Source: a virus
Taxonomy: Duplodnaviria > Heunggongvirae > Uroviricota > Caudoviricetes
Strand: one strand, 5' to 3'
IMG/VR virus record: IMGVR_UViG_3300005329_000001
DNA length: 64,000 bases
Shown here: in pieces, positions 17,974 through 18,334 of the stretch
Layout: each line of letters opens with the position of its first letter
Position numbering within the stretch: position 1 is the first letter of the stretch
Translations under genes and position numbers: made by a program
The notes under the pieces: model-generated
Told to the model about the DNA's origin: nothing
What the model saw: only the letters and a program-made list of their open reading frames with translations
Database searches by the model: none

Positions 17974-18334
17974 TGGTGGAGGTGGCGGGAGTCGAACCCG
18001 CGTCCAACGCATTCATGCCGAGCGAGTACTACGAGCGTAGCTGGTTGAGGAGCCAGCACCAGATGAGGCCCTTGTTACGGCCCGGGTCTGACCGTCGACG
18101 TCATCACCGTTACCGCAAGCACGTCGACTCCTGCGGGACTTACCGGGGATTCTTTTGTCGGGTTTCCGGTCTACCCCGTCCGGTTACGCTGCTGCCTGGA
18201 GAGGAGCAGAGAGGTTGGACTGCACGCGAACGTTGTCGTTGGCGTTTGATGCGTGGCTGCTTTTTATCGAGGCTGCAACCATCCCCGGCTCGCACTCGTT
18301 CCTCTGTCTGCGCTGTCGAAACCGTTACACCCCC
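17974..18334 (-). ncRNA. ssrA: tmRNA (SsrA), one-piece, 361 nt
   Basis: 5' end GGGGGUGUAACGGUUUCGACAGCGCAGAC (E. coli has GGGGCUGAUUCUGGAUUCGACGGG). 3' end GGACGCGGGUUCGACUCCCGCCACCUCCACCA (E. coli has GGACGCGGGUUCAACUCCCGCCAGCUCCACCA). The acceptor stem pairs GGGGGUG with CACCUCC, including G3-U. Candidate tag ORF GCC AAC GAC AAC GUU ... GCA GCA GCG UAA encodes ANDNVRVQSNLSAPLQAAA-stop. Confidence 0.85.

Follow-up and report, generated by a model that had tools for sequence, protein, structure and literature searches.

A one-piece tmRNA gene within the genome of a large tailed phage from soil and rhizosphere metagenomes

The 64-kb stretch of DNA analysed here (64,000 nt, referred to as the window) contains a real, full-length tmRNA gene, which lies inside a large tailed phage genome with phage hallmarks on both sides. 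As judged from its sequence, this gene probably encodes a functional one-piece tmRNA (ssrA) of the phage itself, acting in ribosome rescue. This jumbo phage is of the contractile-tail type, has a genome of at least ~210 kb and is present in soil and rhizosphere metagenomes. Its tmRNA lineage is new to the reference sets (GenBank phages, and IMG/VR as searched), and the kind of feature is established.

The tmRNA gene and its tag

The gene is a one-piece tmRNA with encoded CCA, 361 nt in length, located at 17974..18334 on the minus strand. ARAGORN and the Rfam model RF00023 both detect it at full length and with identical coordinates, which bears out the original prediction, made from the letters alone, of a one-piece tmRNA; the strand, which had not been given, is minus. 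It is the sole RNA gene called by ARAGORN in the window. RF00023 shows a score of 125.2 bits (gathering score 47, E 1.7e-48) along model positions 1-374, end to end and with no truncation, and is the only family reaching its gathering score in the window when all 4227 Rfam families are scanned. The acceptor stem, GGGGGUG/CACCUCC, contains seven pairs including G3:U and is followed by ACCA (discriminator A and CCA), and the T-arm, GCGGG/CCCGC, is intact with a loop of the GUUCGAnUC type. Both the 5' and the 3' end quoted in the prediction are present in the sequence, as is the G3-U identity pair for AlaRS, which falls within the seven-pair acceptor stem.

The tag frame (18184..18243, minus strand; gene positions 92-151), identified with ARAGORN and the Rfam alignment, opens at the resume codon GCC, encodes ANDNVRVQSNLSAPLQAAA and closes at a UAA stop. 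It has 19 codons, shows no start codon and ends in LQAAA. In the RF00023 alignment, GCC-AAC-GAC sits on the consensus GCa-AAC-gAc of the resume region with high posterior probability, so that the covariance model and ARAGORN agree on the resume codon; the frame proposed earlier is therefore right, and the tag ends in AA as proposed. The tag had also been described as unusually long. This is correct in relation to the 95 bacterial one-piece tmRNAs with ANDNV tags used for comparison, in which tag length ranges from 9 to 17 aa with a mode of 11, but 19 aa is inside the known spread: many bacteria have tags of the ANDN type, as do more than 90 viral contigs of IMG/VR, where such tags reach 18-20 aa. 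Beside the 95 bacterial comparators, the 19-aa tag of the window with its LQAAA ending is long and atypical.

Genomic context and local organization

On the 3' side of the tmRNA, on the same strand and 2-5 kb away, lies a lysis cassette (13211..16060) containing three minus-strand genes: an endolysin (13211-13939; Pfam PG_binding_1 and VanY, phrog_2649), a papain-like peptidase (14330-15130; Pfam Peptidase_C1) and a holin (15587-16060; phrog_13712). The minus-strand block left of the tmRNA holds nucleotide-metabolism genes; ThyX (2158-3114), a phosphoesterase (3116-3718) and a SpoU methylase (3711-4250) are in this block. A gene encoding an adenylosuccinate-synthetase homologue (9054-10421, minus strand) matches phrog_1211, which carries a PurZ-type label (E 2e-66); the best solved relatives of this protein are ordinary cellular PurA enzymes (E 1e-31), and no claim of a 2-aminoadenine (Z) genome is made from the phrog_1211 match. 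It is followed by a phrog_2971 homologue (10617-11639), whose other family members come from phages of Rhizobium and Vibrio and from cluster C mycobacteriophages, and by a gene encoding a 357-aa protein (11652-12725, minus strand) with a DnaJ domain and a kinase-like region (phrog_3043; faint or weak Pkinase). The position of the DnaJ-kinase gene next to the phrog_2971 gene is conserved in L173, L174, L177 and L178 (described below), the relatives in which the adenylosuccinate-synthetase block is retained. A 931-aa protein (4351-7146, minus strand) shows a precomputed Pfam match to MVP_shoulder, the major vault protein shoulder domain, which is unusual in a phage.

Two ligase-like genes are also listed in the left block and a ligase in the right block. 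Two ATP-dependent ligase-like genes are located at 7624-9057 (plus strand) and 28042-29535 (minus strand), one with LigD_N and OB and the other with DNA_ligase_A_M. Together with the SpoU methylase, the ligase-like genes may be what the original prediction meant by an RNA-repair theme.

The plus-strand block right of the tmRNA opens with about 20 small ORFans, which are followed by the ligase, a phage-type sigma factor (phrog_351), very large ORFs and a baseplate gene. The latter encodes a 1569-aa baseplate wedge protein (57094..61803, plus strand) with a Pfam Baseplate_J match of 28.7 bits (cutoff 21.1) and a phrog_6 match (E 7.5e-17). The three very large ORFs, of 1124, 1124 and ~2218-2270 aa, are at 31070-34444, 38108-41482 and 43848-50660, respectively, all on the plus strand, and are conserved in the metagenome copies of the phage. 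None of them has a match in Pfam or PHROGs, neither of the 1124-aa ORFs matches PDB sequences, and the second of these has no match among GenBank phages either; having no detectable relatives, they cannot be used as phage hallmarks.

Temperate elements are generally known to integrate often into ssrA (PMC9004378), and an Alcaligenes phage shares the 3' 34 nt of the window tmRNA without a mismatch, which is the only match to the tmRNA obtained by blastn against 50,697 GenBank phage records. Both observations would suit a host ssrA at a prophage junction, that is, a bacterial gene used as attachment site with host DNA on one flank. Such an origin is extremely improbable. The tmRNA has the lysis cassette on one flank and the baseplate gene on the other, and the GC content is even across the window (~0.55-0.64). 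Integrase and recombinase families are absent among the called genes of the window, in agreement with the prediction that no integrase flanks the tmRNA; its neighbours are a response-regulator gene and ORFans. The 3'-terminal 26 nt of the tmRNA match the 64-kb window (18 kb and 46 kb on the two sides) only once with up to 3 mismatches allowed, and its 3' end shows a single match and no repeat in each of six related loci; neither an integrase nor a direct repeat of the 3' end, the combination that would indicate a prophage, is thus found in the window. Furthermore, the window tmRNA is ~30% diverged from the closest sampled bacterial tmRNA, and it is syntenic in five diverged relatives, in one of which (L173) it lies deep inside a 207-kb contig. 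The 34-nt match falls in the Alcaligenes phage's own permuted two-piece tmRNA and is ruled out as an att core. The gene is phage-borne, as predicted, and not a host ssrA serving as attachment site. In the Alcaligenes phage itself, vB_Af_QDWS595 (OK149171.2; L181 2942-3318, ~54.97-55.35 kb), ARAGORN calls a permuted two-piece tmRNA with the tag ANDNVYAAAA and a cluster of tRNAs; the match falls in a gap between annotated genes, and the record lists neither the tmRNA nor the tRNAs there.

The tmRNA had been placed exactly at the strand-switch point, which is approximately right: the switch is ~275 nt upstream, past a 62-aa ORF and a hairpin. The true strand switch is the divergent intergenic region at 18610..18683, obtained from the L007 gene calls converted to window coordinates. 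It contains the conserved motif GTGGGATAAG (18651-18660), located 42-51 nt before the next start codon and with G.GATAAGA invariant in six genomes (the window and five relatives). GTGGGATAAG is a candidate -10 element of the leftward unit, with a putative promoter role. An AAAGGAG ribosome-binding site is between the motif and the 62-aa ORF. A sigma-70 consensus scan around the tmRNA shows no promoter and no terminator, and nothing in the divergent region.

The 62-aa ORF (18421..18609, minus strand; from the ORF list) is the first gene of the leftward arm and is directly upstream of the tmRNA. It is a gene call in all metagenome copies, a small ORF is called at its position in L173, L174, L178 and L179, and coding sequence matching it aligns in all five relatives, L177 included. 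A PHROG search gives no match for it; its hydrophobic C-terminal stretch makes it a probable membrane protein. Between this ORF and the tmRNA, 10 nt upstream of the tmRNA 5' end, is a long hairpin (18345..18400, minus strand; fold -40 kcal/mol, z -2.4), which is also present in L174, L178 and L179 with different, mutually compensating sequence. L173 and L177 lack it, and in these two the small ORF directly adjoins the tmRNA. The hairpin is probably a leader, a processing element or a partial terminator. Since there is no space for a separate promoter between hairpin and tmRNA, the tmRNA would be cotranscribed with the 62-aa ORF and then processed. At the other end, 46 nt past the tmRNA 3' end, is a stand-alone response-regulator receiver gene (17559..17927, minus strand; Pfam Response_reg, E 3.2e-12), and the consensus scan shows no terminator-like site between this gene and the tmRNA.

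The same phage is found in many soil and rhizosphere-type metagenomes assembled independently (JGI, ENA, Logan). At least six independent assemblies show a tmRNA that is identical or 99.7% identical (one base) in the same context. The genes neighbouring the tmRNA are found on contigs of the 0.2-1 Mb size class, including contigs of more than 200 kb, and a contig of 210 kb from the same phage overlaps the window on its left side. This contig (ERZ27264918 k141_5812483; L002, 210,361 bp) ends at ~13.8 kb of the window, near the endolysin, and other assemblies continue. If it does not wrap around, the phage genome is larger than ~260 kb. A search of JGI metagenomes with a degenerate ANDNVRVQ pattern gives 37 loci, of which one is a tmRNA, from the same phage, and the rest are chance matches. 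In IMG/VR, searches with the exact tag DNA pattern and with the 317-aa protein encoded near the tmRNA give no relatives, and the tmRNA-pattern loci fetched from this database include no syntenic relative of the clade.

Related phages and evidence for structural selection on the tmRNA

For the 317-aa neighbour protein, whose gene (19366-20319) lies just past the strand switch, there are 64 homologues, all of them metagenomic and none with a Pfam domain. The loci of eight of these homologues are the relatives considered here. Five of them contain a tmRNA in the same place and on the same strand: L177, L178, L173, L174 and L179, in which the neighbour protein shows 68, 64, 63, 63 and 61% identity, respectively. 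In L173, the tmRNA is ~147 kb into the 207-kb contig. The tmRNAs of these relatives show RF00023 scores of 119-122 bits. The remaining three loci, L180, L175 and L176 (neighbour identity of 50, 45 and 43%, respectively), have none within 10 kb of the corresponding site, which indicates that the gene is dispensable for the wider lineage. In L179 (8647-8982, minus strand) ARAGORN calls none and RF00023 gives 122 bits over the full model, so that surveys of phage tmRNAs made only with ARAGORN may undercount. L180 contains a small tRNA cluster (6437-6672, minus strand; Leu, Asp and one odd tRNA) a few kb from the homologous site, and a T4 rIIB-family gene, which is a further phage marker.

A neighbour-joining tree of the six phage RNAs and the 95 bacterial tmRNAs, based on 310 well-aligned columns, places the phage RNAs in a single group that excludes all the bacterial sequences. 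Distances are 0.17-0.45 within the phage group and at least 0.41 from any phage RNA to any bacterial sequence. This pattern fits a tmRNA that was probably acquired once by the ancestor of the clade and then inherited vertically.

The tag frame and its in-frame stop are kept in the six phage RNAs, and the tags belong to two families. The long family contains ANDNVRVQSNLSAPLQAAA (window), ANDNVRAKSNFSAPVRAAA (L174) and ANDNVRVQSESFAPLQVAA (L178), all of 19 aa and of the form ANDNVR..S..AP..AA. The shorter family contains ANDNSYAADQRAAA (L173), ANDNMFIADQRAAA (L177) and ANDNSYNDVIADQRAAA (L179, read by hand), of 14-17 aa and of the form ANDN...ADQRAAA. An N-terminal ANDN and a C-terminal AA are constant across the two diverged families, and the V after ANDN is absent in three of the six tags.

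The tRNA-like domain of the window RNA and of the five relatives shows the G3:U stem, the T-arm and ACCA, with compensatory changes. The acceptor stem is perfect in all six phage RNAs (7 bp with G3:U) and has four different stem sequences; the T-arm, equally perfect in the six, has four variants. RNAalifold on the six sequences gives 55 pairs, 16 of them with compensatory double changes, which map to the acceptor stem, helix 2, the first PK1 stem and the T-arm. Helix 2, which links the tRNA-like and mRNA-like domains, comprises 23 of the RNAalifold pairs, several with double changes.

A structure including PK1-PK3 was also built by hand; it is derived from one sequence and was counted on the three long-tag sequences only. 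It is 92.6% paired, versus 35-47% after a shift of the 3' partners by 1-3 columns, and 11 of its pairs are changed on both sides, versus 1-3 in the slid versions. Helices 2-4 are 90-100% paired in this structure. PK1 (18255..18287, minus strand; gene positions 48-80), upstream of the resume codon, has the stems CGGGG/CCUCG and GGUUGC/GCAGCC, each with 94-100% pairing. Both sides have changed in three of their pairs, and the first stem is also recovered by RNAalifold in the six sequences. PK2 (gene positions 152-191) and PK3 (199-241), both within 18094..18183 on the minus strand, were assigned by hand. PK2 is 100% paired yet invariant. PK3 stem 1 shows 100% pairing and a single double change; stem 2 pairs in the window and in L174, and the alignment leaves it ambiguous in L178. 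The RF00023 posterior probabilities are low across PK2-PK4. Regarding the four pseudoknots anticipated by the original prediction, PK1 stands, as does the resume codon; PK2 and PK3 can be drawn by hand and are mostly paired, but PK4 is not assignable by hand.

The absence of the tmRNA from the distant relatives L175, L176 and L180 would be expected of a non-functional passenger, a captured host gene that drifts and has no role for the phage. The RNAs that are present point the other way: the gene is retained at one locus while the neighbour protein has diverged to 61-68% identity, Rfam scores are 119-125 bits, the tag frames are intact, and compensatory changes are found in the acceptor stem, helix 2, PK1 and the T-arm. 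The conserved pairing and the kept tag frames argue against a decaying gene, and a passenger is thus very unlikely. Comparative evidence from synteny, from the single phylogenetic group and from compensatory changes instead suggests that the tmRNA is under structural selection in the phage.

Proposed role and comparison with known systems

As a functional phage tmRNA, the RNA would be the product of the second gene of a leftward transcription arm that starts at the divergent intergenic region. It is probably part of a longer transcript, from which host RNase P and 3' processing enzymes would cut it out. Host AlaRS would charge it with alanine through the G3:U pair, and the charged tmRNA would enter stalled ribosomes together with SmpB and EF-Tu of the host; no SmpB family is seen among the called genes of the 64-kb window (from a genome of at least ~210 kb), so host SmpB is presumably used. 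Translation would resume at GCC and add ANDNVRVQSNLSAPLQAAA, by which the ribosome would be released and the truncated protein marked. By analogy, the likely benefit is that ribosome-rescue capacity would be kept up once host transcription is off and mRNAs are cut or stopless. Ribosome rescue is the usual reading of phage tmRNAs (PMC7162821, PMC9004378, PMC4131195), and the role put forward in the original prediction, rescue of ribosomes stalled on damaged or cleaved host mRNAs during infection, follows this standard view.

An alternative is that the phage RNA mainly competes with the host tmRNA. In one form, the host degron, ending in ALAA, would be swapped for a longer tag ending in [Q/R][A/V]AA, with slower or different degradation or with the use of another protease or adaptor; in the other form, the phage RNA would titrate SmpB and dampen host trans-translation. 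The six phage tags end in QAAA, RAAA or QVAA, versus ALAA in 73 of the 95 bacterial ANDNV tags, and the two tag families have diverged while keeping the ANDN and AA ends, all of which would suit a changed degron. Flynn and colleagues are said to have reported in 2001 that E. coli ClpX reads a terminal L-A-A, which counts on the same side. However, endings such as LAAA, RAAA, LQAA, AYAA and AMAA also occur among the bacterial ANDNV tags, and most IMG/VR viral ANDN tags end in ALAA, so that a non-LAA tail is no general phage trait. Titration has a precedent in the phage DS6A, whose tmRNA consists only of the TLD and has been proposed to titrate SmpB (PMC4131195), but the window RNA differs from a pure decoy in its complete mRNA-like domain. 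Competition of either form is unlikely as the main function. It is likewise unlikely that the clade, having long kept its own tmRNA, reshaped the tag into two families as a degron with altered protease or adaptor specificity; if this were true, the RNA would do more than top up rescue capacity, and the fate of the rescued proteins would be altered. In the same reading, the location of the tmRNA behind a small, probable membrane-protein gene that heads the arm running into the lysis cassette may tie its dosage to the infection programme. A wider rule, that phage tags generally avoid LAA, was prompted by the AAA tails here and in the Alcaligenes phage and was dropped because most IMG/VR viral ANDN tags end in ALAA and bacterial tags vary too.

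The find leaves the understanding of phage tmRNAs unchanged. It adds a previously unsampled soil phage lineage to the phages with their own ribosome-rescue RNA. Comparative evidence for structural selection is unusual for a tmRNA called in metagenomes, and the six diverged tags are a natural experiment on which parts of a tag a phage must keep.

To approach the host, 185,579 species genomes were scanned for a tag beginning with ANDNV behind a tmRNA 5' end. Most of the matches come from Myxococcota, among them Archangium, Myxococcus, Corallococcus, Cystobacter, Hyalangium and numerous soil MAGs, and have ANDNVELALAA as their tag. Among these ANDNV-selected bacterial tmRNAs, the best overall identity to the window tmRNA is ~70% (Archangium gephyra), and the nearest in the conserved columns are soil Myxococcota-type MAGs (~59%). 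Myxococcota are kept only as a weak lead to the host, because the scan required ANDNV, ANDN tags are widespread, the best identity is low and three of the phage tags are without V.

Of 18,146 phage genomes, 402 (2.3%) have been counted as having a tmRNA, and most of these belong to large phages (Buchholz et al. 2022, PMC9004378). An ssrA gene is known from Bxz1-type mycobacteriophages and Bacillus phage G (Hudson et al. 2014, PMC4131195). The cluster C mycobacteriophages (Bxz1, Catera, ScottMcG and others; myoviruses of ~155 kb) resemble the window phage in having a one-piece tmRNA in a large genome of lytic type and outside an att site (PMC4131195, PMC1475703), and they share the phrog_2971 family, of which the window homologue (10617-11639) is ~38% identical. 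They differ in tag, in genomic neighbourhood and probably in host phylum, and their tmRNA shows no nucleotide similarity to that of the window (search of 50,697 GenBank phage records). Huge phages carry tmRNAs and SmpB, which has been read as ribosome rescue (Al-Shayeb et al. 2020, PMC7162821), and the tag of phage G, AKLNITNNELQVA, is likewise non-canonical (PMC12484599). Huge phages and phage G are like the window phage in their genomes of more than 200 kb, with the tmRNA among translation-related genes (PMC7162821, PMC12484599); unlike the 64-kb window, where no SmpB gene is seen, some huge phages encode SmpB (PMC7162821).

The marine phages (Melnitz, pelagimyophages and cyanophages) also contain a complete phage tmRNA beside a promoter region and without an integrase (PMC9004378). 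Their tmRNAs are two-piece and circularly permuted, and some are riboswitch-controlled (PMC9004378), whereas the tmRNA of the window is a standard one-piece RNA and is itself the only Rfam family at gathering score here. Finally, the ssrA of soil Myxococcota, from a comparison set pre-selected for ANDNV tags, is likewise one-piece and of ~360 nt, and has the same first five tag residues and a similar A-rich context before the resume codon. It has an 11-aa tag ending in ALAA instead of the 19-aa tag ending in LQAAA, and it is a bacterial gene, whereas the tmRNA described here is located in a phage genome.
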